Below are positions 4,515-43,916 of a DNA stretch of 64,000 nt, piece by piece. Position numbers and translations under genes: made by a program. The DNA comes from Candidatus Forterrea multitransposorum CG_2015-17_Forterrea_25_41 (lineage in GTDB: Archaea > Iainarchaeota > Iainarchaeia > Iainarchaeales > CSSED10-239). Location: NCBI GenBank assembly GCA_009392915.1, contig CP045477.1:768001-832000 (forward strand), in the 5' to 3' direction. Numbering within the stretch: the stretch's first letter is position 1; each line of letters begins with the position of its first letter. The notes beneath the pieces are model-generated. The model saw nothing but the letters and a program-made list of their open reading frames with translations, was not told the DNA's origin and made no database searches.

Positions 4515-4588
4515 GGATCCGTAGCTCAGTCTGGCAGAGCACTGGACTTTTAATCCAGGTGTCGTGGGTTCAAATCCCACCGGATTCA
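4515..4588 (+). tRNA. tRNA-Lys (anticodon TTT)
   Basis: Cloverleaf GGATCCG...CTGGA-CTTTTAA-TCCAG...GGTTCAAATCC...CGGATTC-A. Confidence 0.8.
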
Positions 4589-4622
4589 CTTTCTATTATT
4601 TTTTATTTTAAAATAATTATTA

Positions 4623-4697
4623 GGGCTCGTAGCTCAGTCTGGTAAGAGCACTGGACTCTTAATCCAGGTGTCGTGGGTTCAAATCCCACCGAGCTCA
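4623..4697 (+). tRNA. tRNA-Lys (anticodon CTT)
   Basis: Near-duplicate of the previous tRNA, with anticodon loop CTCTTAA. Confidence 0.8.
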
Positions 4698-4722
4698 CTT
4701 CCTTAATACTTTAAAAAATAAT

Positions 4723-4796
4723 GGTTCCGTAGCTCAGCCTGGGAGAGCAATAGGCTGAAGACCTATGTGTCGTGGGTTCAAATCCCACCGGAGCCA
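4723..4796 (+). tRNA. tRNA-Phe (anticodon GAA)
   Basis: GGTTCCGTAGCTCAG...ATAGG-CTGAAGA-CCTAT...GGTTCAAATCC...CGGAGCC-A. Confidence 0.75.
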
Positions 4797-5407
4797 TATT
4801 TTACTTTTTTTATAAAAATAATTTCTTCATCTGTTTCTATTGCTTTTCTGGCATTATCAAAAACTTGTTTATTTATTTTTATATTTTTATTAATTAGGTT
4901 TGTTTCTGGTGAATGAATTATTATGTTATCTACGTCATATCCTGTAATTATTATGAAGTGGCCTTGAAATGCACCTTCTTTTTGAAATAGTTTATTGTAA
5001 TCTACTAATATTATCGGTACATATCCATCATTGATTTTTGTTAATATATTTTCTATTGTAATTTTTTGTTCGTATATCTTAACATTTAACATTTTTGCTG
5101 TATCATACATTTTTTTAATATTAATTAATATTTCATCTTTTAAAAATGGATTTGCTGTTAAAGAAAATTCGTCTTCTGGCAATTTAATTTCAGTTGTTTT
5201 TGTATAAAATTCAACATCAAAACCAAATTGTTTACTGACTAGTGCTAATTGCAAACTATATAATCCTTTTCCTTCTTTATAACTTAATTTGTGCTTAATT
5301 TCTTTATTTGATTTTTCTTCTTTAAAATAAGCATACACCATTTTTAGTGCTATTGGGCCGCAATCAAATTTTTCGTCTTGTTGATAATAAGGTATGTTTA
5401 AGTTCAT
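4778..5407 (-). CDS. Papain-like cysteine peptidase, C39-like domain protein (standalone)
   Basis: Catalytic Cys in QQDEKFDCGPIALKMV and His in QGHFIIITGYD. The 3' end overlaps tRNA-Phe by about 19 nt. Confidence 0.45.
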   Translation of the reverse strand: MNLNIPYYQQDEKFDCGPIALKMVYAYFKEEKSNKEIKHKLSYKEGKGLYSLQLALVSKQFGFDVEFYTKTTEIKLPEDEFSLTANPFLKDEILINIKKMYDTAKMLNVKIYEQKITIENILTKINDGYVPIILVDYNKLFQKEGAFQGHFIIITGYDVDNIIIHSPETNLINKNIKINKQVFDNARKAIETDEEIIFIKKVKYGSGGI

Positions 5408-5480: not shown

Positions 5481-8024
5481 TTGTTTTCTATTATATATTA
5501 TATTATGGATGATAAAACATATACTCCTATGATGAAACAATATGTTGAAACTAAAAAACAATACCCTGAAGGTATTTTACTTTTTAGAGCAGGAGATTTT
5601 TATGAAATGTTTTTTGATGATGCAAAAGAAGCATCAAGTATCCTAAACATAACTTTAACCAAAAGAGGTAAGGGTGCAACTGAAGCTCCTCTTGCAGGTA
5701 TACCCTACCATTCAATTGATCCTTATATTGCAAAATTAATTAAATCAGGAAAAAAAGTAGTTATTTGTGATCAAATAGAAAACCCTAAATTTGCAAAAGG
5801 CTTAGTTAAAAGAGCAGTTACAAGGATAATTACTCCAAGTACTTTTTTTAATGATTCTTATGATAATAATTTTTTATGTTCTATAACGAACCACAAAGAT
5901 AAATTTGGGTTCTCATTAGTTGATATTACAACTGGAGAATTCAAAATTACTTCTTTTAATGATTTTTCAAGTCTTTTAAATGAATTAATATTAAATAAAC
6001 CAAAAGAAATATTATTAACTAAAAATATTTTAAAAAATATAGATTCTCTTGACTTGATTAAAAAAGCAATACCAAGCACTATTATAAACTATACAGATAA
6101 TTTAGATGTTGAATTTGCCTATCAAGAGTTATTAAATCACTTCAACATGAAATCTTTAACTCCTTTTGGTATTATTTCTACTAATCATTCATCAGAAATA
6201 ATTTTATCTGCTTATAATGCTATTAAATACTTAAAAGAAACACAATTTTCAAATCTAAGTTATATTAGAACAATTAAAGAATATTCATTAAATAAATATT
6301 TAAAATTAGATAGAAAAACTGTTAGAAACTTAGAACTTGTTTATAATCTTCAAGATTTTTCAATTAAAAATTCATTATTTCATTTAATTAACCATACAAA
6401 AACACCTATGGGTTATAGAAAATTATATTTTGATTTATTACACCCTATATTAGATAAAGAAAAATTAAATAATATTTATGATTCTGTTGAGGAATTAATT
6501 AATAATCAACATTTAATGCAAGAACTTTCATTAAATTTATCATATATTGGTGATATTGAAAAAATAATTAGTAAAATTGGTTTTGGAAATGCAAATCCTA
6601 GAGATTTAATTTCTTTAAAACAAAGTATCTCAATACTTCCAAAAATAAAAATGATATTAGAGAGTACTTCTTCTAAAAATTTAAAAATATTAAATAGTGA
6701 ATTAATAACTTTAGATAGATTGCATGAATTAATTAATGTTTCAATAGTTGAAGAACCTCCTTTCACAGTTAGAGAAGGTAAATTTATAAAACCTGGTTAT
6801 TCAAAAGAATTAAGTGATTTAATTTATACTTCTAAAAATATAAATTCTTGGTTAGTTGAATTTGAAGCTAGATTAAAGACAGAAACAAATATTAAATCTT
6901 TAAAAGTAAAATTTAACAAAGTGTTTGGATATTACATAGAAATACCAAAAGCACAAGCAAAAGAAGTTCCTTTTTATTTTGAAAGGAAACAAACACTTGT
7001 AAATGCAGAAAGATTTACAACAAAAGAACTTTCTGAAAAAGAAATAATTGTTTTAAATGCACAAGAAAAAAGAATCGAACTAGAATATAATATTTTTTTA
7101 GAAATTTGTAAAGAAATTAATACTTATAGAGAAGAAATTAATTTAGTTGCAAGTTTAATTTCAGAACTTGATGTATATTATTCATTTGTAAATGTATCTT
7201 TGTATAATAATTGTTCAAGACCAATAATTAATAATTCAGATAAATTAATATTTAAAGAATTAAGACATCCTATTATTGAAAAAAACATAGAATTTATACC
7301 AAATGATTGTTCACTTAATAATTTAGAAAGAACAATGATAATTACAGGTCCAAACATGTCTGGAAAAAGTAGTTATATGAGAAGTGTTTGTCTTGCAATA
7401 ATTCTTGGACACGTTGGTTGCTTTGTTCCTGCTAAAGAATCAGAAATTGGTCTAATAGATGGTATTTTCACAAGGATAGGTGCTTCTGATGATATTTTAC
7501 ATGGTCAAAGTACTTTTTTAGTTGAAATGTCTGAAATTTCTTATATTTTAAATCATTGTACAAATAATAGTTTTATTATTTTAGATGAAGTTGGAAGAGG
7601 TACAAGTACTTATGATGGTTTAAGCCTTGCTTGGTCAATTACAGATTATTTGAATAATAGAATTAAATCAAAAACTTTAGTTGCAACTCATTATCATCAA
7701 TTAAATAAAATGGAAGAATTATTTGAAGGTGTTAGTAATTACCATGTAACTGCAAAAGAAGAAAACAATAATTTAGTATTTTATCATAAACTAATAAAAG
7801 GTGGGATAAATAAAAGTTATGGTATTCAAGTTGCAAAAATTGCTGGTCTTCCAGAAGAAATTATTGAAAAAGCATTATTAATTCAAAGAGATTTAGAAGA
7901 AGATGTTTTTTTAAAACAAAATAAATCTTCTCCTAATTTACAAGAAGTTAAAAAAATAAATGAAGATGAAAAAAGAATTCTTTTTAAAAAAGAACAAAAA
8001 AGATTAGAAGATTATAAAAAATAA
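5481..8024 (+). CDS. mutS: DNA mismatch repair protein MutS (bacterial-type MutS1). The likely start is MDDKTY... about 24 nt into the ORF.
   Basis: Mismatch-recognition motif GDFYEMF (Phe-x-Glu), Walker A GPNMSGKSSYMRSV, and DEVGRGTSTYDG. Confidence 0.85.
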   Translation: MFSIIYYIMDDKTYTPMMKQYVETKKQYPEGILLFRAGDFYEMFFDDAKEASSILNITLTKRGKGATEAPLAGIPYHSIDPYIAKLIKSGKKVVICDQIENPKFAKGLVKRAVTRIITPSTFFNDSYDNNFLCSITNHKDKFGFSLVDITTGEFKITSFNDFSSLLNELILNKPKEILLTKNILKNIDSLDLIKKAIPSTIINYTDNLDVEFAYQELLNHFNMKSLTPFGIISTNHSSEIILSAYNAIKYLKETQFSNLSYIRTIKEYSLNKYLKLDRKTVRNLELVYNLQDFSIKNSLFHLINHTKTPMGYRKLYFDLLHPILDKEKLNNIYDSVEELINNQHLMQELSLNLSYIGDIEKIISKIGFGNANPRDLISLKQSISILPKIKMILESTSSKNLKILNSELITLDRLHELINVSIVEEPPFTVREGKFIKPGYSKELSDLIYTSKNINSWLVEFEARLKTETNIKSLKVKFNKVFGYYIEIPKAQAKEVPFYFERKQTLVNAERFTTKELSEKEIIVLNAQEKRIELEYNIFLEICKEINTYREEINLVASLISELDVYYSFVNVSLYNNCSRPIINNSDKLIFKELRHPIIEKNIEFIPNDCSLNNLERTMIITGPNMSGKSSYMRSVCLAIILGHVGCFVPAKESEIGLIDGIFTRIGASDDILHGQSTFLVEMSEISYILNHCTNNSFIILDEVGRGTSTYDGLSLAWSITDYLNNRIKSKTLVATHYHQLNKMEELFEGVSNYHVTAKEENNNLVFYHKLIKGGINKSYGIQVAKIAGLPEEIIEKALLIQRDLEEDVFLKQNKSSPNLQEVKKINEDEKRILFKKEQKRLEDYKK

Positions 8025-8034
8025 GTGAAAATAT

Positions 8035-9789
8035 ATGTTAATTAAAAAATTATCTCAAGAAACCATTAATTTAATTAGTGCTGGAGAAGTAATTGAAGGT
8101 CCAAGTGATATTTTAAAAGAACTTTTAGAAAATTCTGTGGATGCTAAAGCAACAGAGATAACTGTTGAAATAAAATCTTCTGGTTTAGATTTAATAAAAA
8201 TAAAAGATGATGGTACTGGTATTTTAAAAGAAGATTTAGAAGTTTGTCTTGAAAAATACACTACAAGTAAACTTGAAAAAATAGATGATTTATACACTAT
8301 TGATAGTTTTGGTTTTAGAGGTGAGGCATTATCAACTATTGCTGCAGTTTCAAAATTTAAAATTGTATCTTCTACTACAAATGATGGTAAGGGATATGTT
8401 TTAGAGAATAACAATATTTCTCAAGTATCTTCAAACAAAGGAACAACTATAACAGTTCAAGATTTATTTTATAATGTGCCTGTTAGAAAAAAGTTTTTAA
8501 AATCAAAAAGCTTTGAATATTCTAAAGTATATGAAGTTTTTCTTGCAAATGCTTTATTAAATCCAAATATTACTTTTAAGTTTATTTCTGAAAAGAAAAA
8601 TGTAATTTTTCCAAAAACAGATTTTGAAAATAGATTAGTTCAAATATATGGTGTTGAAATTAAAACTAAAACAATTAATTTAGATATTAATACAGAATTA
8701 TTTAAAGTTAAAGGAATTTTAACTAATCCTCAAAATCCAGTTTATTTTCCTTCAAATTTTTTATTTATTAATAAAAGATTTGTATTTTCACCTCAAATCT
8801 ATAAAGCTATTATTGATTCTTATAAAGATTATTTAATGATACAACAAAAACCATTTTTTATTTTATTTATTGAGTTAGATCCTAGAACAATAGATGTGAA
8901 TGTACATCCTAAAAAAAGAGTTGTTAAATTACAAAATGAAATGTTGTTTTTATTAGAGTTTAAAAGAGAATTATCTAAAAAATTAGATGCATCTTTAGGT
9001 AAATTTGCTCCTGCTTTAGAGCATAATTCTTTAAAAGATTTTATTTCTTCTAAAAATTCAGATTATTCTTCTTTTCAAAAACCAACTCAAAGTAGTTATT
9101 CAAGTAATAACTATTCAAGTAATAAAGAAGTTCCTTTTTTCAGAAGTGATCTTCAAAAACCACTTTATGAAAATAACAATATTTCTAGTATTTCAGATAA
9201 CTTAACTTTATTTGAACACAATATTACAAAAATACTTGGTCAAATAAAAAACACCTTCATTATTTGTGAAACTGATAAAGGGATGATATTAATTGATCAA
9301 CATGCTGCTGATGAAAGAATAAACTTAGAAAAAAATAGATTGAAATATGCTGATTATGTTGAAAAACAAAATTTAATATCAGAAATTTCTTTAGATTTTA
9401 TTTCTGAATCACATAAAGAAATTTTAGCAAATAATATTGAAATTTTTAAAAAAACTGGTTTTGAATATTATTTAAAAAATGATATTTATTTTTTAAAAAC
9501 AATTCCTTTATTTTTAAATAAATATTTTGATAAAAACTTATTTTTAAATCTTTTAAAAGATATTGAAGAAGGCAATAATGAAGTTTTTAAACTTAAAGAT
9601 AGTCTTTTAAAATTAAGATCTTGTAAAGAATCTATTAAAGCTAATGATTATTTAAGTAGTCATGAACAAATAGAAATTATTAAAAAATTAAATCTTTGTA
9701 AAGATAAAGGTATTTGTGCTCATGGAAGACCAACAATTATATTTTTATCTTTAAAAGATCTTGAAATATTATTTAAAAGAATAGTTTAA
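8035..9789 (+). CDS. mutL: DNA mismatch repair protein MutL with C-terminal endonuclease motifs
   Basis: GHKL ATPase motif ELLENSVDA; endonuclease motif DQHAADERINLE; C-terminal CAHGRP. Confidence 0.8.
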   Translation: MLIKKLSQETINLISAGEVIEGPSDILKELLENSVDAKATEITVEIKSSGLDLIKIKDDGTGILKEDLEVCLEKYTTSKLEKIDDLYTIDSFGFRGEALSTIAAVSKFKIVSSTTNDGKGYVLENNNISQVSSNKGTTITVQDLFYNVPVRKKFLKSKSFEYSKVYEVFLANALLNPNITFKFISEKKNVIFPKTDFENRLVQIYGVEIKTKTINLDINTELFKVKGILTNPQNPVYFPSNFLFINKRFVFSPQIYKAIIDSYKDYLMIQQKPFFILFIELDPRTIDVNVHPKKRVVKLQNEMLFLLEFKRELSKKLDASLGKFAPALEHNSLKDFISSKNSDYSSFQKPTQSSYSSNNYSSNKEVPFFRSDLQKPLYENNNISSISDNLTLFEHNITKILGQIKNTFIICETDKGMILIDQHAADERINLEKNRLKYADYVEKQNLISEISLDFISESHKEILANNIEIFKKTGFEYYLKNDIYFLKTIPLFLNKYFDKNLFLNLLKDIEEGNNEVFKLKDSLLKLRSCKESIKANDYLSSHEQIEIIKKLNLCKDKGICAHGRPTIIFLSLKDLEILFKRIV

Positions 9790-10979
9790 ATCTTTACAAT
9801 CCATATAAATAAAAATACTGTAATTATTAATAAAATAGTGATTGCTGTATTTTCAGAAGAATCTGGGTTTTCTGAATTAATGCTAATTGTTTGAGTACCA
9901 ATATTTTTAACATTTTCTCCTTCTAAATAATTAATAGTAAAATTTAAGGTGTGTTCTCCTTCTTTATATGTTTTAATTATAAATGGTATTTCAACAACAT
10001 CTTTTGGTCTAATTAGATTTATTTTTTCTTGAGATACAATTATTTCTCCATTAAAATAAGGTTTGATATATACATCTGTAACTTCTTTTTCTGAATTGTT
10101 AATAATAATTAAATGACCAGTTTGTTCTTCTTTTGGTACAATTATTTTTTGAATATCTATATGATTTTCTAAAGCATTTTCTTTTTCTGAAATAGTTATT
10201 ATTTTTTGTTTAATTTTTTTTGTAATTTCTTGGTTAAAAACATCTGTGTATTTAAGATTTGCAATAGGTGTTGCAAATGTGTTATTTGAATCTGTTTTTA
10301 CAAAATAATCTATTTTTATTTCACTTTGAGCTTTAAGCAATCCTTCAAAACTTGTTTCTCCAGAAACATTTTCTAAATTAGAATTATATATGAATAAATT
10401 AGATGCATTTTTAAGTTCAATAAAAGTATCTGCATAACCACTATTTCTTACGTGAATAGTAATAGGTATTAAAGTATTAACATATGCTGTAGAAGGTGCA
10501 TCTTGATAAAAATCTTCATCAGTTATTTTTGAATTATAATAAGTTCCAATTAAACTATCTGAATCTATAATTAACCTTGGTAAAAAATTATTTTCAATAC
10601 AAATTTCTAATTTGTTATCAATTGAATCAAATTTTCCTAATTTTATAATATTTTTTTCTTTAATCTCTTTATCAATTATTTCTGTAATATTTTTATCATT
10701 TACTTTAATGTTGATTATAACTCCTTTAGAAATAGGTATATAATTTTTAAGCATTAATTGAAAATAAGTTTCTGAAAACTCATCAGATTTTAAATTAAAA
10801 GTAAAATCTTTACAAAAACTACTTCCTTTTTCAACAACAATATCACCTTTATCTAATATATTTAAAGTGGTTTCATCAATAGTTGTTGCTAATAATGAGT
10901 TTGAAATTAAGATAATTCCAATAATTAATAAAAAATACTTATAATTCATATATACTTCACAATATATTATATCTAACAA
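9786..10979 (-). CDS. Secreted/surface protein with an N-terminal signal peptide and a C-terminal transmembrane anchor
   Basis: Hydrophobic N-terminus (FLLIIGIILISNSLLA) and C-terminal TM segment (AITILLIITVFLFIWIVKI). No recognisable enzymatic motif. Confidence 0.4.
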   Translation of the reverse strand: MLDIIYCEVYMNYKYFLLIIGIILISNSLLATTIDETTLNILDKGDIVVEKGSSFCKDFTFNLKSDEFSETYFQLMLKNYIPISKGVIINIKVNDKNITEIIDKEIKEKNIIKLGKFDSIDNKLEICIENNFLPRLIIDSDSLIGTYYNSKITDEDFYQDAPSTAYVNTLIPITIHVRNSGYADTFIELKNASNLFIYNSNLENVSGETSFEGLLKAQSEIKIDYFVKTDSNNTFATPIANLKYTDVFNQEITKKIKQKIITISEKENALENHIDIQKIIVPKEEQTGHLIIINNSEKEVTDVYIKPYFNGEIIVSQEKINLIRPKDVVEIPFIIKTYKEGEHTLNFTINYLEGENVKNIGTQTISINSENPDSSENTAITILLIITVFLFIWIVKI

Positions 10980-10998: not shown

Positions 10999-13900
10999 TT
11001 AATGTCTTAATATTTTTTTCTTTTTCTCAGCTATGGTTTTTTCTTTCTTTTTATTACCCAACCTTAAATAAGCATATAAACTAACGAATAAAACTACAAT
11101 AATTGTAATTAAAATATATTGTGTTTTTGTTGAATTTTTCGAAACAGGATTTGTTTGTTTTAAAACATAAATTACATCAAGATATTTTTCATCATCATAA
11201 TTTGTTTTTGCAAAATTAAGTGTTTCAACATCATATTCTTTTTTTTGATAATCTATTATTTCTTTTTTAGCATCATCTTTTATTTCAATTAAACCAGAGG
11301 TTAAATTATCATAATCTGATTTTATTTTTTCAATTCTATTTATTGTTTCTAAAGAAATGGCATTAAGTGCACCTTTGTAGTCTTTTTCATTATATTTTTC
11401 ATCAAAGTTAGATAATTCTTTATTGAAAAGTACACTTTCTAAAAAAGCATAATTTTTTTCTAATCTTTTTGCATCGTTTTCTGTAATTCCAGAAAAATAC
11501 CCAATTGAATAAAGATCAGTTAAAGTATATGTTTCATATAACAAATATGTTTTTGTAATTATTTCATTAATTTTGTCTTCTTCTAAATTATTTGTTATTG
11601 GGTTAATGTAATAATAAAGTTCTTCAGCTTTTTCTTTTAGTTTCTGATTAATTATATCTTTAATTTCTGTAATGTTTTTATCTTTACTTAATAAATCTAA
11701 ATCTATGTTTTCTAAATTATTTTCATTAATAATTTCATTAAGTTCTTTAAATTCAGCAATTTCTAAACTTTTAGTGTCGTTTTGTAAGTCCTTTTCTCTT
11801 TTTTTAATATCTATTAATAACTGTATTAAATCTTTTTCTGCTAAAACCATATTTTGATATTTATTACTTTCTATTTTTTCTAATTTGTTTTCTTCAAAAG
11901 AAGTTAGTTCTTTTTGATAAATCTCATTTAAAGTAATTAAATAATTTTCTTCAATAATTTGATAATGTTTGTTTTTTTCTAATAGTTTTTGTAAGGTGTT
12001 ATAATAACTGTAAATAGTTTCTATTTCATTAATACTATATTCTTCAGAATATGGTTTGTCCAACAAATATTTCAATTCTTTAATTGATTCTTTTTGAATA
12101 TCTAAAAATCTAGTGTTTCTAAGCTCTTCTGCTGCTAAAATTATTTCTCTAATTTCTTCATAAACTTTATTCTTTTCAATTAATGTTTTTAAAACAAATT
12201 CTAAAACTTCATCTTTTTTAATCTCTATATTATAAATTAAGTTTCCATTTTCTTCAAATAAAGTAATTTCTTTATTATTTTTATAAAAAGTATTAATTTC
12301 GTTTTCTTTAGTTTCTTTAATAATTAATTTTTGATTAATTTTTTCAAAAAATTTATTCTTTAAAGAAATATTTGTTGTTGTAATAAATTTATCACTACTT
12401 ATTTCTTCAATATTTTTAGATAGGTTATTTTCAAATACAGGTCCATAGACATAAAATTCATTTTCTTTTTTTGTATAATAATAAATATTATTTTCTTCTA
12501 TAATAACATCTTCATTTTTAGATATAAATCCATCAATAAATAAAAGTGAATCATATATTCCTTCTACTTCGTTTTCAATTGTAATTTTAATAATACTTTC
12601 TTTTAATGATAAATAAATTATTTCATAATTTATATTTTTATTATTCTCATAATCTACTAAGAAATAATTTTTACCAGGATATATAGTGTGTATCTTTATT
12701 TGTGTTTTATTAATAAGTAACCCAGGATCTTTAGATACTAGGTTTAAATAATTATTTTCTATTTCAATATTTAAAATAATTTCAGAGAAGTTATTTATTA
12801 ATTCAAAATAATATTTATCATCTATTTTTTTAATAGTGTAGTTTTTATTTTCTTGAATGATCTTTTTAATGATTAAATCTATTTCTCTTTCAATATTATT
12901 TATTTTTTCTTGATTTTCATTAATATTTATAATTAACTCAACATTATTTTTTTGTTTTATTTCCTTTACATCTTTTTCAATTTCACTAATTATTTCATAA
13001 TTTTCTTCAAGTTTATTTTCAACATATATTTCATTAATTTTATTTTCTATTTCTTTAATTCTTTTTTTAATTATAATTATTTTTTCATTACTTTCAAGTT
13101 TATAATTTATGTTGTTAATGTGTTCTAAACAATCTTCTTCTGTTGAATAAATATATAATTCATAATCTTTAACTTCTTCAATTTCGCTTTCAATAACACT
13201 ATAAATTAACTCTTGGCAATTTTGTATTTCATTTGCATTTTTTATTTTTTCACAATAATTTAATTTTTCAAGAAGATTGTCACTTTCTTTATATTGACTA
13301 ATTAATCTTGATATATATAGATTACTTTGTTCTTCTAGATTTTCAACTAAAATATCACAAGCAAACAGTTGAGAGTTTTCTAACTTTTCTTTTTCAACAA
13401 TTTCTTGGTTTTGTAAAATTTCTAAATTAATTTCTTTTAATTCTGATAAATATTTTCCAAAAGTAATTGTTTTATTTTCAAAGTAATTTTTTTGTTTTAA
13501 ATAATAATTATATTTTTCAGTAGTTAAATATTCTTTATTTTTTTCAATTTCTTTTTGATAATCTTCTATTTTATTATAAATTACATCTAAATTTTCAGTT
13601 ATTCTATTATTAATAATTATAAATTCTGTAACTAATGATTTTTCTTTTCCAACCAACTTATCCATTAAAATATAAAAATTATATCCATCTAGTTTATCTA
13701 AATTATAGTTTATGTTTCTTAAATCTTCTATGTTAGATAATTTTTTATATACAAAATTATTTATTCTTAAAATTTCAGGAAGATTAATTTCTTGTGAATT
13801 AATTTCTTTTTCATAGATTTGTAAATAATACAAAGTTAGATCAGATACATTTTCTTTTGCAAGATAGGTTTCTCTAAAACCTAATTCTTTAGAATATACA

Positions 13901-14487
13901 TGTAATTCTTTAATTTCTTGATTTACTTTTGATAAATAACTTTCATTTTCTATTTGTTTTTTCATAAAATTAATATTATCATTTAATAATATATAATCTT
14001 GAAATATTTCTTCTTCAGGAATTAGGTTAACTTCTTGCTGTTCTAAAAATAAGGTATAATCAATAATAAGATACATGCTTTTTTTAGTTGCATTATCAAC
14101 ATATGAAAAGGTTTTAGAAAAAAGGTCCATTACATCATTATAATTATCTAAAATTGTTTTGATGTTCTCTTTTCTACACCCTTCATTCAATAAATCTAGT
14201 TCTTTTTTAGTAAGTGTATAATAATAATGACTGGATGCTAAGTAATTTTTATAAGTATCTATATTTTGACTTAAAGAAAGAGGTATTTTGTTATTTTTTT
14301 CAATAGATAATTTTTCAATTTCAGTAAAACATTTATTTTGAGAAGTACAATCATCAATAGAAGTAGAGGAATAATGAGTTAAAGCAAGACAAGCTTGCTT
14401 TTCTCTAGTGGTTATAAATTCAAGGCAACCTGAAAGGCTTACTAGTAAAATCAATAAAAAATATATGTATATTTTTTTATCAATCAA
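10999..14487 (-). CDS. Giant (1162 aa) coiled-coil surface protein. It has a signal peptide with a lipobox-like LSGC, an N-terminal Cys-rich region, and a C-terminal TM segment plus basic tail.
   Basis: Extremely E/K/N/I-rich heptad-like sequence throughout. C-terminus ILITIIVVLFVSLYAYLRLGNKKKEK. Confidence 0.4.
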   Translation of the reverse strand: MIDKKIYIYFLLILLVSLSGCLEFITTREKQACLALTHYSSTSIDDCTSQNKCFTEIEKLSIEKNNKIPLSLSQNIDTYKNYLASSHYYYTLTKKELDLLNEGCRKENIKTILDNYNDVMDLFSKTFSYVDNATKKSMYLIIDYTLFLEQQEVNLIPEEEIFQDYILLNDNINFMKKQIENESYLSKVNQEIKELHVYSKELGFRETYLAKENVSDLTLYYLQIYEKEINSQEINLPEILRINNFVYKKLSNIEDLRNINYNLDKLDGYNFYILMDKLVGKEKSLVTEFIIINNRITENLDVIYNKIEDYQKEIEKNKEYLTTEKYNYYLKQKNYFENKTITFGKYLSELKEINLEILQNQEIVEKEKLENSQLFACDILVENLEEQSNLYISRLISQYKESDNLLEKLNYCEKIKNANEIQNCQELIYSVIESEIEEVKDYELYIYSTEEDCLEHINNINYKLESNEKIIIIKKRIKEIENKINEIYVENKLEENYEIISEIEKDVKEIKQKNNVELIININENQEKINNIEREIDLIIKKIIQENKNYTIKKIDDKYYFELINNFSEIILNIEIENNYLNLVSKDPGLLINKTQIKIHTIYPGKNYFLVDYENNKNINYEIIYLSLKESIIKITIENEVEGIYDSLLFIDGFISKNEDVIIEENNIYYYTKKENEFYVYGPVFENNLSKNIEEISSDKFITTTNISLKNKFFEKINQKLIIKETKENEINTFYKNNKEITLFEENGNLIYNIEIKKDEVLEFVLKTLIEKNKVYEEIREIILAAEELRNTRFLDIQKESIKELKYLLDKPYSEEYSINEIETIYSYYNTLQKLLEKNKHYQIIEENYLITLNEIYQKELTSFEENKLEKIESNKYQNMVLAEKDLIQLLIDIKKREKDLQNDTKSLEIAEFKELNEIINENNLENIDLDLLSKDKNITEIKDIINQKLKEKAEELYYYINPITNNLEEDKINEIITKTYLLYETYTLTDLYSIGYFSGITENDAKRLEKNYAFLESVLFNKELSNFDEKYNEKDYKGALNAISLETINRIEKIKSDYDNLTSGLIEIKDDAKKEIIDYQKKEYDVETLNFAKTNYDDEKYLDVIYVLKQTNPVSKNSTKTQYILITIIVVLFVSLYAYLRLGNKKKEKTIAEKKKKILRH

Positions 14488-21220: not shown

Positions 21221-22267
21221 TTATTCTTTCTTCTCTATTGTATATGTCTTTTTCTTTTGATTAATTTCAGTAATATATAGTTTAATATTTTTTTCTTCTA
21301 AATAATTATTTATTTTTAAAATAATTTCTTTAGAATCTATTTTTTTAAAAGTAGCTTTTTCAATAATTTTATTTATTTGGTCTACAAGTGTAAAATTAGA
21401 ATAAATAAATTCTCCTTCTTTTTCAAGAGTCTTTATTTTTTCTTCAAACTGTTCTTTTTTATCTTCTTGTGATTTTAGTATTTCTGAAACTTTGTTTTTT
21501 TTAATAGTTTCTTTAACTTCTTCTTTTTTTTCAAAGAAATTTTTAAACTCGTTTTCAAAAGAATTAAATATATCTTCTCCATCTCTTGAAATTATAAAAC
21601 TATTTTTATTATTTTTATTGATTTTTTTTACCCCTGGGTTTTCAAGCTCATAATTTTGGTAAATATTTTCAATTAATTGCTTTTTAGAATCTAATATATC
21701 ATTAATTTCCATAGGAGCAATATTATATTTTCTTGAAAGCACTCTAATTTTTTCAGGATCTGTTAAATCTTTTAATTCTTCTTCTATTTCTTTTTTATTT
21801 TTAAGTTTAATATCTTCTCCAGAAGGGAAATTATAAGTTTCTCCTTTCTGAATAGTTCTATCTTTCCATTCTTCTTTTTGTCTTGAGGTTATTATCTTAA
21901 AATTTTCATCTGTTAAAATTACATTTGATTTTGAAAAGAATTCAAATATTAAATAATATTTATCAAGTTTAAAACAAATTACTTTATTATTTTTATCTTG
22001 ATAGATATCATGTATTCTTTGATTATATAATTTTTTTTTAAGATATTTTTCAAATCCTAAAATTTCTGAAACTGGAAAAGTATGTTTTGGTAAAAAACAT
22101 ATTTCAGGAGTTATAATTAGTTCTTTTGTTTTTTTAGAATGTATTTTTATTTTCCATATCTTGTTATCAATAGTCTGCACATTATTAATATATCCTAAAT
22201 TAAATTCTTCTTTTAATTTTTTAGCGATATAATAAAAAACAGTACTTGTGGTTTGTATATTTTCCAT
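21221..22267 (-). CDS. NFACT-N domain protein (Rqc2/NEMF/FbpA N-terminal-like); no NFACT-R domain
   Basis: The pattern ICFLPKHTFPV...RIHDIYQDKNNKVICFKL...YLIFEFFSKSNVILTDENFKII fits NFACT-N (Q..DRil.l.f ... LivElfg.gNiiL.d). Confidence 0.45.
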   Translation of the reverse strand: MENIQTTSTVFYYIAKKLKEEFNLGYINNVQTIDNKIWKIKIHSKKTKELIITPEICFLPKHTFPVSEILGFEKYLKKKLYNQRIHDIYQDKNNKVICFKLDKYYLIFEFFSKSNVILTDENFKIITSRQKEEWKDRTIQKGETYNFPSGEDIKLKNKKEIEEELKDLTDPEKIRVLSRKYNIAPMEINDILDSKKQLIENIYQNYELENPGVKKINKNNKNSFIISRDGEDIFNSFENEFKNFFEKKEEVKETIKKNKVSEILKSQEDKKEQFEEKIKTLEKEGEFIYSNFTLVDQINKIIEKATFKKIDSKEIILKINNYLEEKNIKLYITEINQKKKTYTIEKKE

Positions 22268-22270
22268 AAA

Positions 22271-23335
22271 TTATTCATTACTATAATCTGTATATTCTAG
22301 GTTGTTATAAGAATATATTTTTTTAACTATTTTTTTATTGTTAAACCTATATTCTTCATAAAGTTTGTTTACATCAGTATTTTTATAAGTATCCATAGGT
22401 ATATTTTGAACAATATCTAAAATATAATAAGTTTCTTTAATCTTTGTACTTACAAAAGAATGTACTTTATCATCTTCAAGTAAAACTACTTCTATGCTTG
22501 ATAAGTTATCTTGCATTCCTTGCATTACAGAACAAAGAATAACTGATATTGTTTGTTCATCGCAAATTTTTTCAGAAATAATTTTTGAAAAATCCATCCA
22601 AAAAATAACTTTTAAATCATTTTCAATAACATCAATTTCTGTTCTTAGATAATTATATATTTTTCTAAGTGTTGTTAAATAATCTTTATTATAATCATAA
22701 GCAATTGGTGTGAATTTTGAAATTATACTTTTTATTGTTAAATCATTTGGTTTTACCATTTCTTTAAGTTGAGAAATAGTTTTTCTTTCATCTTCGTTTA
22801 TTAAATCTTTATATTTATTAATAATTATTGAATAATATTTAATTTTATTAATATCTTCTTCGCTAGCTTTTGTTTCTGTATTTTTTTTAATATTTTTAAT
22901 AAAATCTTCAAGTTCTTTAATTCTTTCTTTTAAATTTAAATTTTCAACTTCAAGTTCACTAACATCTCCTTTTATTTTAAGATTTTTAAATCTTAGTTCT
23001 TCTTCAGGAGAGTCATCTTTTTGTATTTTTGTAAGGTTTGAAACTTCTAAATTAATTTTAGTTTCTATTTTTTTAAGTTCGTCATTAATTTCTTTTAATG
23101 TTTTTGAATATATTGATTCATCAATACTTTTTGCTGTATATCTATAAGAAAGTTCTTTTTTTTGTTCTAAAAGTTCTTTTTTCTTAGTATTTAAATTTTC
23201 AATAATCTGCCATGTTTTTTGTTCTTTGTTAATAGGGTCTTTTTTCTTAACTCTTAAATTAACTATAGCTATAATTGTACCAAATGACAAAAATATAAAA
23301 ATTATTATTAATATCTGTGAAAAATTAATTGACAT
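22271..23335 (-). CDS. Membrane-anchored coiled-coil protein with a possible C-terminal transglutaminase-like Cys-His-Asp core
   Basis: N-terminal TM segment, coiled-coil middle, C-terminal ICDEQTISVILCSVMQG ... VHSF ... YILD. Confidence 0.3.
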   Translation of the reverse strand: MSINFSQILIIIFIFLSFGTIIAIVNLRVKKKDPINKEQKTWQIIENLNTKKKELLEQKKELSYRYTAKSIDESIYSKTLKEINDELKKIETKINLEVSNLTKIQKDDSPEEELRFKNLKIKGDVSELEVENLNLKERIKELEDFIKNIKKNTETKASEEDINKIKYYSIIINKYKDLINEDERKTISQLKEMVKPNDLTIKSIISKFTPIAYDYNKDYLTTLRKIYNYLRTEIDVIENDLKVIFWMDFSKIISEKICDEQTISVILCSVMQGMQDNLSSIEVVLLEDDKVHSFVSTKIKETYYILDIVQNIPMDTYKNTDVNKLYEEYRFNNKKIVKKIYSYNNLEYTDYSNE

Positions 23336-32788: not shown

Positions 32789-35122
32789 ATGTTTGCTATT
32801 TCAAAAAAAGGAATAAGTCCTTTAATTGTAACTATTTTAATTGTTGTTGTAATAGTCATTATTGTGTCTGTTTTATTATTGTGGGGTAAATCTTTCACTT
32901 TAGATAATTTATCTCTTTCTGAAAGAGTTTTTGAAAAATCTAGTCTTTCTGATTTTGTTTGGCAAGATAATTTATTTGAAAAAAATTTATTTATTAAAAA
33001 TACAAATTCTAAATTAGGTGCGTCAATTATTGGTTATAAAATAAATAGTTCCTTAGATTATCCTTTTTTAAATGAATATAGATACTTAGAAACTGAAGTT
33101 TATTTGGGAAAAAACAGTATTGCAACAATTCCTTTAGTTTGTATTCCTGAGAAAAATTTTACAATAGAATTAATTACTTCCAAAGATGAGTATATTACTG
33201 TGCCTGTTACTTCAAAGTCTTTTGATGCAAGTGATTGTACTTTTAAAGGAGAAATTACAAATCCTTCTGAAGATTTTAGTATAAGGTCTGGAGATTCTAT
33301 TTTGTTTGACTCTTTGGCATTAAATACTTCTGGGAATGAAACTTATTTATGGGTATCTGATAAAGATGGAACTTTAAGTACTGATAAAAATTTTACAATA
33401 AGTTCTTTATCTGTAAACAATCATTTAATTACTTTAACAATCACAGATTTTAATTCAACTATTGAAAAATCTTTGTCTGTTGTGATTCATCCTCCTTTAA
33501 GTTTAAGTATTTTATCTCCAATTGATGATTCTGGTTTTTTAGTAAACACCTCTATTGATTTTAATTCAATTATTGATAATAATTTAGGTGATTATTCTTG
33601 TAATTGGCAATCAAATCTTGATGGTTTGTTAAGCACCAATTGTATTTTTAATTCTTCAAGTTTATCTGTGGGTAATCACACTTTAACTTTAAATGTAATT
33701 GATGATGTAGGAACTAGTAGTGTTACTTCTGATATTTTAGTTAAGAATAGTTTTACACCAATCATTAGTTCTCCTTTAGAAGATTCTATTTTTGTAGTAG
33801 GAAATAACATAAATTTAATTGGTACAACAATTAATTCTTTTGGAACTTATACTTGTTCTTGGGATTCAAATATTAATGGAAGTTTAGGTACTGGTTGTAA
33901 TTTAAATGTTGATGATCTAAACATAGGTGCTCATGAAATAACTTTAAATATAACAGATGATTTAGAAACAAAAACTGCAGTAACAACTATTGTAATTAAA
34001 GATCATTTACTTCCAGAAATAGTATCTCCTATTGCAAGTTCTACTTCAACAGAAGGAAATACAGTTAATTTTTTAGGGAGTGCAACTAATACATATGGAA
34101 GTTACACTTGTTCTTGGGATTCAAATCTTGATGGAAATTTAGGTGTTGGTTGTGATATAGATGTTTCTGATTTAACTTTAGGAACTCATGAAATAACTTT
34201 AAGTGTAACTGATGATTTAGAAACTGTTTCAATTTCTCAAATTAATTCTGTGATTGTTATTGTGTATGTTGATGATTTAATTAATTTAGTTTTCAGTGAT
34301 AGTGTTACAGGTTATTCTTTTTCTGGTAGTACTTATAATTATAATGATTTATTAATTTTAAATAGTTCTAATACTGTAACTGTTACTCCGACTGGGGCTG
34401 GAACAATAACTGTAAATGGTTCTACTGTTTCCTCAGGTTCTCCATCAAGTCCTATTGATTTAAGTGATGGTACTGAAAAAACAATTACCATAGAAGTTAG
34501 TGATGTTGATAAGTATTCTAAAACTTATACTTTGAGATTAACTAAAATAGTAACTACTGGTGGAACCATAACTAATGGTACAGGTTATAGAATTCATAAA
34601 TTTACTTCAAATGGATCATTTACCTCTAACATCCCATTAACTGCTGAACTTTTAGTTATTGGTGGAGGTGGAGGTGGTGGTGGATATGATGGTGGTGGTG
34701 GTCGTGCCGGAGCGTTATATTATAGTGCATCTTATTCAATACCTTCAGGTTCAACAAATGTTGTAATTGGTGCTGGAGGTCTAGGTGTAAATTATACAAA
34801 AGGATCAGCAGGTACTGCTTCTTCTTTTGGAGCAATATCTAAAGCTGGAGGTGCTGGTGGGGCTTTAACAAGTCCTAAATCTGGTGGTGCAGGTTGTGGT
34901 GGTGGAGGAAGTGCCTTTAATGCAGGACTGGGTTATGGTCTTGAAGGTCCTGGTTGTACATATAGTATTACAGGAACTCCTGTTGTATATGGTCTAGGAG
35001 GAAGAGGAGGTAATGGAGGGAGAACAGATGGTGCTACAAACACAGGATCAGCAGGTTGGGCTGGCGGAACTAGAGGTGGTCATGGTGCTGATGGAGTTGT
35101 AATTGTTAGAATAAATTCTTAG
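32789..35122 (+). CDS. Large type IV pilin-like adhesin. It has a class III signal peptide, four ~90 aa Ig/PKD-like repeats and a C-terminal glycine-rich module.
   Basis: N-terminus KKGISPLIVTILIVVVIV. Repeats share the motif YTCSWDSN..G.LG.GC...V.DL..G.HEITL.VTDD. The C-terminus is about 40% Gly (LLVIGGGGGGGGYDGGGGRAG ... GADGVVIVRINS). Confidence 0.6.
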   Translation: MFAISKKGISPLIVTILIVVVIVIIVSVLLLWGKSFTLDNLSLSERVFEKSSLSDFVWQDNLFEKNLFIKNTNSKLGASIIGYKINSSLDYPFLNEYRYLETEVYLGKNSIATIPLVCIPEKNFTIELITSKDEYITVPVTSKSFDASDCTFKGEITNPSEDFSIRSGDSILFDSLALNTSGNETYLWVSDKDGTLSTDKNFTISSLSVNNHLITLTITDFNSTIEKSLSVVIHPPLSLSILSPIDDSGFLVNTSIDFNSIIDNNLGDYSCNWQSNLDGLLSTNCIFNSSSLSVGNHTLTLNVIDDVGTSSVTSDILVKNSFTPIISSPLEDSIFVVGNNINLIGTTINSFGTYTCSWDSNINGSLGTGCNLNVDDLNIGAHEITLNITDDLETKTAVTTIVIKDHLLPEIVSPIASSTSTEGNTVNFLGSATNTYGSYTCSWDSNLDGNLGVGCDIDVSDLTLGTHEITLSVTDDLETVSISQINSVIVIVYVDDLINLVFSDSVTGYSFSGSTYNYNDLLILNSSNTVTVTPTGAGTITVNGSTVSSGSPSSPIDLSDGTEKTITIEVSDVDKYSKTYTLRLTKIVTTGGTITNGTGYRIHKFTSNGSFTSNIPLTAELLVIGGGGGGGGYDGGGGRAGALYYSASYSIPSGSTNVVIGAGGLGVNYTKGSAGTASSFGAISKAGGAGGALTSPKSGGAGCGGGGSAFNAGLGYGLEGPGCTYSITGTPVVYGLGGRGGNGGRTDGATNTGSAGWAGGTRGGHGADGVVIVRINS
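33490..34270 (+). repeat. Intragenic tandem repeats of ~270 bp with high nucleotide identity between adjacent units
   Basis: Near-identical runs at 33851 and 34107 (tacttgttcttgggattcaaat...catgaaataactttaa...gatgatttagaaac). Confidence 0.6.
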
Positions 35123-42647: not shown

Positions 42648-43916
42648 TTATTCTTCTATTTTTTTATCTAACATCAAAAACATAATGTCTTTTCTAGTAA
42701 CATATGCTTGGACATTAAAATTAATTATTTCTTTATTTATATCTTCTGGATATTCAAGCCATACAGGGTATGTTTTTTCAGAATAAGTATATTCTTCTTC
42801 TTGTAAAGTTATTTTTTCAACATCCAAGATAGCTTCTTTTTCAATTTCTTCAAGTTCTAAATCTAATGGTGTTATTTTTTCAATAATATTTTCAATTTCT
42901 ACAGAACTTTCAAGAAGATATTTTTTTTCAAAATCTTTTACTTTATTTTCTTCTAAAAATCCATTTTCAATTAATTTTTCTTTTATTTCTGTATAGTTAC
43001 TAAGGTTATAGTCAGCTATAAAACTAATTTTTATTTCTTCTATGTTTTTATCAATACTTTCAATTTCACTAATGTTTAAATCTTCTTTAGAAACATTAAT
43101 GTCAAGTCCTTGATACACTAAACTATAATCTGGAACAATTGTAACTTTTTCAATTTCGTTAATTTTTTCTTTAATTGAGTTTTCATCATTATCATTAAGA
43201 TAATTTGTTTTTGTAGAATATCTATATTTTTCATTCCATTCTAAAATATTAATTTCTTGTTCATCAAAAACAAGAGAAGGTGAGCTTGTAAGGTTAGTTG
43301 TTTCATAAAGTATAACATACTCTAAAACTTCTCCTTTAAAACTTGCTTGTAATTGTCCTTGGATATTATCTTTTTTAAGAGTATTAACATTTACAACTGC
43401 ATCAACTATATAATCTACAAAATCATAATCCATTGTTTTGTTTTCATCACTTGTTGCTCTAAAATTAACACTATTGTTAATTTCAACTCTTGCTTGTTTA
43501 TATATTTCAATAGGCTCTGAAGTTAAATATTCTAAATTATTTATTTCTGTAATTATTTCTTCTTGAAGTAAAGGGTCAATTACAATTTTTGCAATCAATA
43601 TTATTTTTTCTTCAGAATCTTTATTAAATTGTATACTTGATCTTTTAACTCCTTCAATTGCAATTAAATCATTTTCTATTTTTGTTTGTTCAAAAACATC
43701 TGTATTACTTGCAATTATTAATTCTGAAAACATTTCTGAAACTATTGCTTCAGTTTCCCCAACATACATTTCTGAAGGTATGTTTAAATCTTCTTCAAAA
43801 TCTTGATATGTTGTATCTACATCTGGTCTTGCCCCAATTGACATACCTACAATAGATCCTAAAATTAATACTACTAATAAAATTGAAAGTCCTGCTTGTT
43901 TATTCATATTTTTCAC
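42648..43916 (-). CDS. Secreted acidic hypothetical protein with an N-terminal signal peptide
   Basis: MKNMNKQAGLSILLVVLILGSIVGMSIGA followed by an E/D-rich domain. Confidence 0.35.
   Translation of the reverse strand: MKNMNKQAGLSILLVVLILGSIVGMSIGARPDVDTTYQDFEEDLNIPSEMYVGETEAIVSEMFSELIIASNTDVFEQTKIENDLIAIEGVKRSSIQFNKDSEEKIILIAKIVIDPLLQEEIITEINNLEYLTSEPIEIYKQARVEINNSVNFRATSDENKTMDYDFVDYIVDAVVNVNTLKKDNIQGQLQASFKGEVLEYVILYETTNLTSSPSLVFDEQEINILEWNEKYRYSTKTNYLNDNDENSIKEKINEIEKVTIVPDYSLVYQGLDINVSKEDLNISEIESIDKNIEEIKISFIADYNLSNYTEIKEKLIENGFLEENKVKDFEKKYLLESSVEIENIIEKITPLDLELEEIEKEAILDVEKITLQEEEYTYSEKTYPVWLEYPEDINKEIINFNVQAYVTRKDIMFLMLDKKIEE

Follow-up and report, generated by a model that had tools for sequence, protein, structure and literature searches.

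A Gly_rich_2 domain with a predicted phage tail-fibre fold and an apparently exchangeable cassette at the end of a pilin-like archaeal protein

We analysed a window of 64,000 nucleotides (nt), positions 768,001 to 832,000 of contig CP045477.1 (assembly GCA_009392915.1) from Candidatus Forterrea multitransposorum CG_2015-17_Forterrea_25_41, a DPANN archaeon and kin of 'Ca. ainarchaeum' (Iainarchaeota). Within this window lies a gene for a pilin-like protein of 777 amino acids (aa) with a glycine-rich C-terminal module. Residues ~588-777 very probably form a folded domain of Pfam family PF21722 (Gly_rich_2) with the type of fold seen in the tail fibre protein gp24 of cyanophage Pam3. The distal part of the domain appears to be replaced as a cassette between close strains, and on balance we favour the reading that the module is the exchangeable ligand-binding tip of a surface adhesin.

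Family assignment of the glycine-rich module

The hidden Markov model search proposed for the module in a first-pass annotation, which had been made from the letters of the window only, gave a full-length match above the cut-off. PF21722 covers residues 606-775, that is profile positions 1-225 of 226. The whole protein scores 38.0 bits and the isolated module 43.3 bits (E 5.7e-11), where the curated cut-off is 24.3. The module had been described as being of unknown type; it belongs to a curated family, whose members sources name 'glycine-rich domain-containing protein'. No NCBIfam family matched the whole protein or the module, and our literature search found no paper on PF21722 or Gly_rich_2.

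The match is not confined to glycine. Conserved motifs in the module are Y-x-x-H-x-F, LLV-GGGG, SSF and GVVIVR, and the family ends in G-I/V-V-I-V-R-Y/I. In an alignment of 128 sequences the module positions H24, F26, F32, L43, V45, S99, V192, I193 and R195 fall in invariant or nearly invariant columns, and the family consensus reads ...ATGGTIT..G.Y.IHTFTSSGTFT......VEYLVVAGGGGGG...GGSGIVIVRY. We searched 1.84 billion cluster representatives exhaustively with a profile; 27,797 of them matched at E<=1e-3, of which 9,837 also reached E<=1e-10. A second search, with a 26-sequence profile in which every third G was masked in runs of four or more, gave 3,801 matches, and all 120 matches listed carry PF21722. 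It should be noted that an unmasked word-indexed search was swamped by poly-Gly words, leaving 9 of the 8,000 scored candidates at E<=1e-3.

As in most of the family (41 of 50 complete domains sampled), the domain is C-terminal here. With ~190 residues it stands at the short end of the family, for which the median is about 275, and it sits on a pilin-like protein of an archaeon, most of the members we found being bacterial or viral. Many Gly_rich_2 proteins (among P0028-P0173) are giants of 2,000-6,400 aa with 3-12 copies of the domain.

The strings quoted in the first-pass annotation are present in the open reading frame (ORF), where LTAELLVIGGGGGGGGYDGGGGRAG begins at residue 617 and the protein ends in ...GGHGADGVVIVRINS. 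Its estimate of about 40% glycine was too high; we measured 32.9% for residues 614-777 and 34.2% for residues 620-777, and 43% was reached only in some 30-residue windows. Glycine runs in the module extend to eight residues, and glycine makes up 6.5% of residues 1-613. The enrichment is far beyond chance and is no accident of composition. The module has a G+C content of 45%, against 27% in the rest of the ORF and about 23% in the genome as judged from the window, and codon positions 1-2 carry the whole of this rise (0.61 in the module vs 0.36 elsewhere). The G+C of third codon positions (GC3), at 0.07 for the module and 0.09 for the other codons of the ORF, equals the GC3 of the host genome, and glycine is encoded almost entirely by GGT (53 codons) or GGA (35). 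Since the excess is confined to codon positions 1-2 while GC3 stays low, we conclude that selection maintains the glycines although the genome is AT-rich, and nothing in this segment points to a recent foreign origin. Horizontal acquisition of the module was considered and rejected, as its GC3 is the same as that of the host genome. The earlier statement that the module is not collagen stands; there is no G-X-Y periodicity, with 14, 24 and 16 glycines in the three phases of about 55 positions each.

Predicted fold and relatives of known structure

Structure prediction, also proposed in the first-pass annotation, gave a confident fold. For residues 580-777 AlphaFold 2 (AF2), run with the 128-sequence alignment, returned a mean predicted local distance difference test score (pLDDT) of 90.7 and a predicted template modelling score of 0.88, and pLDDT was at least 90 for 155 of 198 residues, the glycine runs included. 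Eleven beta-strands were predicted (593-597, 600-605, 609-613, 617-624, 643-651, 654-659, 678-680, 683-685, 723-725, 732-734 and 770-776). Between them lie glycine-rich stretches of high pLDDT to which DSSP assigns neither helix nor strand, and about two thirds of the model is without regular secondary structure by DSSP. The first three strands together with the Pfam domain at 606-775 place the module at residues ~588-777 (nt ~34550-35119). The start first given for it, 34630, is therefore about 26 residues too far downstream, and it is out of frame; the true start is at residue ~588, nt ~34550.

The first-pass annotation had named a low-complexity linker, with no homologues and no fold, as the finding that would speak against a domain, and what we found was thousands of homologues and a confident predicted fold. 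A largely disordered glycine-rich linker, or a spacer of the kind found in cell walls, might be suggested by the one-third glycine content, the long glycine runs, the large share of the model without DSSP secondary structure and the high composition bias of the profile match to Pam3 given below. The full-length Pfam match, which includes the conserved non-glycine motifs, the high pLDDT even in the glycine runs and the retention of costly GGN codons at 23% G+C already contradict such a linker, and we regard it as scarcely credible.

In structural comparisons the nearest solved structures were all phage tail proteins. The tail fibre of cyanophage Pam3 (7ypx_A) scored 14.0, with 156 residues aligned at 26% identity, followed by two proteins of mycobacteriophage Bxb1, the 'tail wing brush' gp33 (9d93_Qa; 13.1) and the tail spike gp29 (9d93_Pa; 10.6). 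The glycine-rich domain of an invertebrate ALK homologue (7lir_B) scored 6.9 and human ALK (7nx3_A, 7lrz_A and 7ls0_C) about 4, and beyond the phage and ALK proteins only generic beta-sandwiches were matched. The likeness to the eukaryotic cytokine receptors ALK/LTK (tumour necrosis factor (TNF)-like plus GlyR; PDB 7LIR, 7LRZ, 7NX3) is thus far weaker than that to the phage proteins, and the ALK/LTK glycine-rich domain family PF12810 did not match the module at E<=1.

Compared by sequence with solved structures, the module alone had no match at E<=10. The 128-sequence family profile reached the Pam3 fibre with E 0.015, a match of high composition bias that spans the closing motif GIIIVQYF, and full-length Pam3 gp24, compared with Pfam, matches PF21722 and no other family, at 23.8 bits, which is half a bit short of the cut-off of 24.3. 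As hhalign of the masked family alignment against Pam3 gp24 gave a probability of only 20%, the link to Pam3 rests on structure together with the near-threshold Pfam match. A Foldseek search of predicted viral structures gave 207 matches at E<=1e-3, and most of those listed bear the name 'glycine-rich domain-containing protein' and come from tailed phages, cyanophages and prasinoviruses, with one from Halorubrum phage HF2. The first-pass annotation had likened the module to 'VLVVGGGGGG...VVIIRY' domains found in tail-fibre-like proteins of bacteria and phages, and this likeness is borne out by the consensus, the Pfam family, the phage structures and these viral models alike.

[quoted passage not shown] The Pam3 and Bxb1 domains have been classed as glycine-rich polyproline-II helical bundles (PMC13243192, 2026). 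[quoted passage not shown] Like Pam3 gp24 (PDB 7YPX/7YFW), the archaeal module is predicted to be a TNF-like beta-sandwich running into glycine-rich loops. The surroundings of the two domains differ. Pam3 gp24 is a virion protein which forms a trimer via an N-terminal helical bundle and needs the chaperone gp25 encoded alongside it, and its gene sits between baseplate-wedge genes and the gp25 gene (tail fibre assembly protein). The archaeal protein, on the other hand, has a pilin-like head and a stalk of immunoglobulin (Ig)-like domains, and its gene lies among housekeeping genes with no chaperone gene adjacent. Bxb1 gp33 and gp29 (PDB 9D93) differ from it as tail-tip components of a siphophage.

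Replacement of a cassette within the module

Alignment to the contig of the relative P0011 revealed a sharply bounded divergent segment inside the module. Nucleotide identity is 97-100% up to ~34699 (93-100% in the proximal part of the module), falls to 30-77% across 34700-35105, and returns to 100% at 35106, from where it stays so past the stop codon and across the intergenic stretch into secD. The protein follows the same pattern, with 85-98% aa identity in the stalk domains, 98% in the cadherin-like domain, 89% for residues 586-640 and 53% for residues 641-777 (43% at non-glycine positions). At its non-glycine positions the proximal part is 74-89% identical to the orthologues.

The divergent segment occurs as three discrete alleles: A in this window and in P0010, B in P0011 and in the 'Ca. 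ainarchaeum' contig L005, and C in P0012. Over residues 631-767 they are 38-53% identical to each other, compared with 82-97% over residues 481-630. Allele B is 99% identical between P0011 and L005 although the cadherin-like part of L005 differs. Synonymous divergence (dS) rises from 0.03 to 0.80 across the cassette boundary. The sharp drop in identity between near-identical flanks, the discrete alleles and the jump in dS bear the signature of a cassette of ~400 nt (34700-35105) replaced by homologous recombination between conserved flanks, these being the first poly-Gly run and the closing strand. A lower-identity patch was also seen in the stalk; codons ~331-420 (~33780-34050, third PKD repeat) have 78-84% nt identity to the 92% identical orthologue, compared with 90-100% in their flanks, which suggests further mosaicism.

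Variation could also arise if the cassette were the target of a diversity-generating retroelement (DGR) and were rewritten by mutagenic retrohoming rather than recombination. DGRs are known in DPANN archaea, and the FGE-sulfatase-like domain, in which some related proteins end, is a classical DGR target of the C-type-lectin fold; moreover the variation stays within one C-terminal stretch a few hundred bases long. The window, however, holds no second copy of nt 34630-35122 that could serve as a template repeat, so a DGR is not indicated, and a scan of 20 window ORFs turned up no reverse transcriptase. The alleles differ by indels and at synonymous sites (dS 0.8), not just at adenine-templated positions, and they are of discrete types, with near identity within allele B. 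We therefore hold a DGR to be extremely unlikely, and recombination between conserved flanks is the explanation we carry forward.

A hypervariable distal part on a conserved glycine scaffold, as expected for a tip of the Pam3 gp24 type, is present here. The adhesin gp38 of Salmonella phage S16 and the T-even phages (PDB 6F45), a polyglycine-II sandwich, likewise has a conserved glycine-rich scaffold (PMC9608196). The mosaic cassette pattern of the archaeal module parallels the design of gp38, a scaffold with hypervariable tips. The hypervariable distal segments of S16 gp38 are said to set receptor specificity, a view reportedly put forward by Dunne et al. in 2018.

Architecture of the protein and exchange of terminal modules

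The coordinates of the gene and its domains are given in Table 1. An identical protein is already deposited (NCP72538.1 and others) and is present on 35 contigs, the longest of 840 kb. The title of NCP72538.1, 'cadherin-like beta sandwich domain-containing protein [archaeon]', names it for its cadherin-like domain, and the nearest named relatives come from a 'Candidatus ainarchaeum sp.' metagenome-assembled genome (Iainarchaeota, a DPANN phylum).

The motif KKG-ISPLIVTILIVVV at the N-terminus is conserved, and I9-S10-P11-L12-I13 is unchanged in 11 relatives. AF2 predicts a helix at residues 11-34 and, with the beta-sandwich head, a 'lollipop' fold that resembles solved archaeal pilins. In the stalk, Pfam matches PKD at residues 252-318 (E 1.5e-6) and, weakly, PKD_4 at 414-485; the DNA holds repeats with a period of 255 nt (families D1 and D5), and a Y-x-C-x-W-x-S-N motif recurs which the relatives conserve. 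The proximal part of the module holds the strands TITNG, YRIHKF, GSFTS and LTAELLVI along with the first poly-Gly runs, and the closing strand ...VIVRINS is identical across all orthologues.

Table 1. Features of the adhesin-like gene and of the second pilin-like gene, in window coordinates
Feature	Residues	Position (nt)	Strand	Basis
Whole gene: head, PKD stalk, cadherin-like domain, glycine-rich tip	777 aa + stop	32789..35122	+	ORF list
Putative class III (prepilin-type) signal peptide KKG/ISPLI, then hydrophobic helix	1-34	32789..32890	+	Sequence reading, AF2
Beta-sandwich head of the pilin-like part	~55-150	32951..33238	+	
About four PKD/Ig-like repeats (stalk)	~151-490	33239..34258	+	Pfam, DNA repeats, motif
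Cadherin-like beta-sandwich domain	499-585	34283..34543	+	Pfam PF12733, E 2.9e-8
Conserved proximal part of the Gly_rich_2 module	~588-637	34550..34699	+	PF21722, AF2 strands, identity
Variable distal part (putatively exchanged cassette): remaining strands, glycine-rich loops	~638-772	34700..35105	+	Identity drop
Closing beta-strand, counterpart of the family GIVIVRY motif	Last residues (...VIVRINS)	35106..35119	+	AF2 strand 770-776
Second pilin-like gene, N-terminus KSISPLISVILL..., two genes upstream	378 aa	30619..31755	+	ORF list, motif scan

A number of relatives have the head and PKD stalk in common with the protein, at about 50% identity, and carry different C-terminal domains. These are an FGE-sulfatase-like domain in P0013 and P0017, Lcl_C (DUF1566) in P0014-16, a Kelch propeller in P0018-20 and RCC1 in P0022. 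Judged from these architectures, the terminal module is swapped among relatives on a common stalk. P0018, one of the Kelch versions, lies with the 92% identical orthologue on one 236-kb contig, hence one genome carries several versions. Among close relatives the cadherin-like domain always adjoins the glycine-rich module (P0001, P0011, P0012 and P0122). In P0122 this pair stands on another stalk, of six CHB_HEX_C/Fn3_assoc repeats, and the N-terminus gives a Class_IIIsignal match above the cut-off.

Pilin and Gly_rich_2 combinations in other organisms

The first-pass annotation had considered a fusion of such a module to a pilin-like protein unusual, and this turned out to be less so. At least 15 of 298 fetched proteins, mostly Gly_rich_2 matches, start with a bacterial prepilin (N_methyl) motif, an approximate count since N-terminal motifs were counted by regular expression, and two further archaeal proteins with class III signal peptides, P0122 and P0186, carry the domain as well. 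Several of the bacterial cases carry PF07963 or labels of type II secretion or pseudopilins (Patescibacteria), the motif being of the type G-F-T-L-I-E, and P0186 combines an archaeal class III signal of the QGATEYL type with Gly_rich_2. The combination appears to be recurrent by these motif counts, and the literature search found no paper describing it.

Type IV pilins with C-terminal adhesin domains, such as PilX2 and Pseudomonas PilY1, have the same general plan as the archaeal protein, with a pilin signal and helix, a head and a bulky C-terminal module. The N-terminus is of the archaeal type here (KKG/ISPLI) and G/FTLIE in the bacterial pilins, and the stalk here is made of four PKD repeats and a cadherin-like domain. 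The Saccharibacteria minor pilin PilX2, with a C-terminal beta-propeller, contributes to host binding of the episymbiont (PMC11623550) and is the nearest precedent in terms of function.

Genomic neighbourhood

The gene lies between a GTPase gene and secD/secF, with genes for DNA polymerase D, EF-1alpha, ribosomal S10, S3Ae and S15, and NAC nearby. This order is shared by the window, the genome of the 92% identical orthologue (syntenic contig NPID01000561.1, L001, GCA_015657875.1) and that of a 61% identical orthologue (L004). The synteny is partial, as four ORFs without a Pfam match stand downstream in L004 in place of secD/secF. With host-like GC3 and conserved synteny, the gene is native to the host genome.

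This bears on a possible viral origin, by which the gene would not encode a cellular adhesin but a tail fibre or receptor-binding protein of an archaeal virus that has integrated. The phage tail proteins among the solved structures and the 207 viral models with Halorubrum phage HF2 among them would fit such an origin, as would matches to phrog_2295 (function unknown, E 6e-21) and phrog_863 ('tail fiber assembly', E 6e-7) and a C-terminal motif that is common in IMG/VR contigs. The housekeeping neighbours, in an order conserved in three genomes, and the host-type codon usage speak against it; so does the pilin-type signal and helix, which is common to paralogues with non-viral domains, and the 20 window ORFs scanned yielded no gene for a capsid, terminase, integrase or tail. 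A tblastn search of the module against 50,697 phage genomes gave nothing at E<=1e-3, to which the low-complexity filter probably contributes. Taken together we consider a viral gene very improbable, and a cellular adhesin remains the reading to be weighed below.

The second pilin-like gene (Table 1) carries …KSISPLISVILLIVV… and matches Pilin_N only below threshold (E 0.13); at E<=1e-3 Pfam assigns no family to it, its C-terminal region included. Its product could be a partner of the adhesin, or the gene could be a paralogue. Its syntenic counterpart in the genome of the 92% identical orthologue encodes 506 aa with CHB_HEX_C/Fn3_assoc repeats; the second pilin-like neighbour therefore also varies between close strains.

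Elsewhere in the window three tRNA genes, Lys(ttt), Lys(ctt) and Phe(gaa), which first surfaced as a direct-repeat family, occupy 4515-4797 (+). An ORF of 209 aa at 4778-5407 (-) has Guanylate_cyc_2 and peptidase C39-like matches (E 3e-25 to 1e-12) and runs in part into the region of the tRNA cluster, which is on the other strand. The ORF at 5505-8024 (+), of 839 aa, we take to have a MutS-like N-terminus from its motifs (…TPMMKQY…FYEMFFDDA), and the adjoining ORF at 8035-9789 (+), of 584 aa, presumably has a MutL-like one (…LISAGEVIEGP…ELLENS(V)DA…). No Pfam family was found at E<=1e-3 for the ORFs in 10999-14130, 21221-23335 and 42648-43907, all on the (-) strand (1,043, 348, 354 and 419 aa), and a 387-aa ORF at 9786-10949 has a weak CARDB match. 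The 419-aa and 387-aa ORFs have signal-peptide-like starts and may encode further surface proteins.

Discussion

Family membership, the predicted fold with its nearest solved relatives, the order of domains, the swapping of modules and the replacement of the cassette are shown by the data, and from them we infer display on a pilus, ligand binding and a part for the variable segment in specificity. We read the module as a ligand-binding tip because it stands at the end of a spacer, is interchangeable with recognised binding domains, has the fold of phage tips and combines a conserved scaffold with a variable cassette. In the mechanism we propose, the class III signal peptide and hydrophobic helix would allow insertion into a type IV pilus-like filament, or anchoring in the membrane, and the four PKD repeats with the cadherin-like domain would form a rigid spacer. 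The glycine-rich domain at the far end would bind a ligand, for which a structure on the surface of another cell, or a substrate, is the likeliest candidate; this would suit the episymbiotic lifestyle common in DPANN archaea. The proximal strands and the glycine scaffold would hold the fold while the variable distal segments set specificity. A swap of the ~400-nt cassette by homologous recombination between the conserved flanks would change that specificity, and on a longer time scale the entire terminal module would be traded for unrelated binding domains.

The module might instead be a structural or assembly element, such as a cap, an oligomerising domain that bundles several stalks much as TNF-like domains form trimers, or a piece by which the protein docks to the S-layer or a filament of its own cell. 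Trimerisation is a classical role of TNF-like sandwiches, multimeric assemblies include both Pam3 gp24 and the tail proteins of Bxb1, the tandem copies in the giant family members suggest a building-block role, and a ratio of nonsynonymous to synonymous divergence (dN/dS) below 1 is also compatible with such an element. A pure cap, however, is not expected to exist as three strongly diverged alleles within flanks that are 97-100% identical, nor to interchange with Kelch, Lcl_C, RCC1 and FGE-sulfatase-like (lectin-type) domains, and we find a purely structural role unlikely.

Several observations weigh against a ligand-binding tip on a pilus. Pilin_N (PF07790) matches the protein at 12.9 bits, well below the cut-off of 25.2 (E 0.21), and in the 20 window ORFs scanned we found neither a pilus ATPase nor a platform protein nor a prepilin peptidase. 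No pilus assembly genes were found within ±10 kb of the orthologue either; pilin genes are often scattered, so the lack of pilus genes nearby is weak evidence. Residues ~690-719, the stretch that is longer in other PF21722 members, are the only part of the module with low AF2 confidence (pLDDT 63-76). Phage fibres trimerise by an N-terminal coiled coil, and none is evident in the archaeal protein, which has Ig-like domains upstream of the module. The receptor-binding role of Pam3 gp24 is itself drawn from structure, and the literature search found no binding measurement for any cellular Gly_rich_2 protein. The dN/dS ratio is 0.62-0.81 in the cassette vs 0.09-0.42 in the stalk, values that are rough as the cassette dS of 0.8 is near saturation, and a ratio below 1 may reflect relaxed constraint on a scaffold domain. 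Finally, the giant proteins show that Gly_rich_2 is also used as a building block in tandem, something for which a pure tip model has no explanation.

The domain family, the fold and the deposited protein were already known, and the outcome is an annotation and a hypothesis and not a new kind of system. What is added is that the family is linked by structure to the receptor-binding tips of phages, that it is found here on a pilin-like stalk of an archaeon, and that it holds a clean allelic cassette of ~400 nt. A very large Pfam family, for which we found no experimentally tested cellular function, is hereby tied to solved phage structures and to a function that can be tested. Further, we speculate that ultrasmall episymbionts of both domains, DPANN archaea and Patescibacteria, have independently put a phage tail-fibre receptor-binding fold on type IV pilins and use it in the manner of phages, as a host-recognition tip that is reset by ~400-nt cassette swaps between strains, a possibility that we regard as doubtful at present.

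Little is known about the means by which DPANN archaea recognise their partners and attach to them, and the adhesin described here is a concrete candidate. Its tip is the fastest-changing and apparently recombining part of the gene, and in relatives lectin-type, Kelch and RCC1 modules take its place. If the tip does act in host recognition, the cassette alleles would predict which host cell a DPANN strain attaches to.

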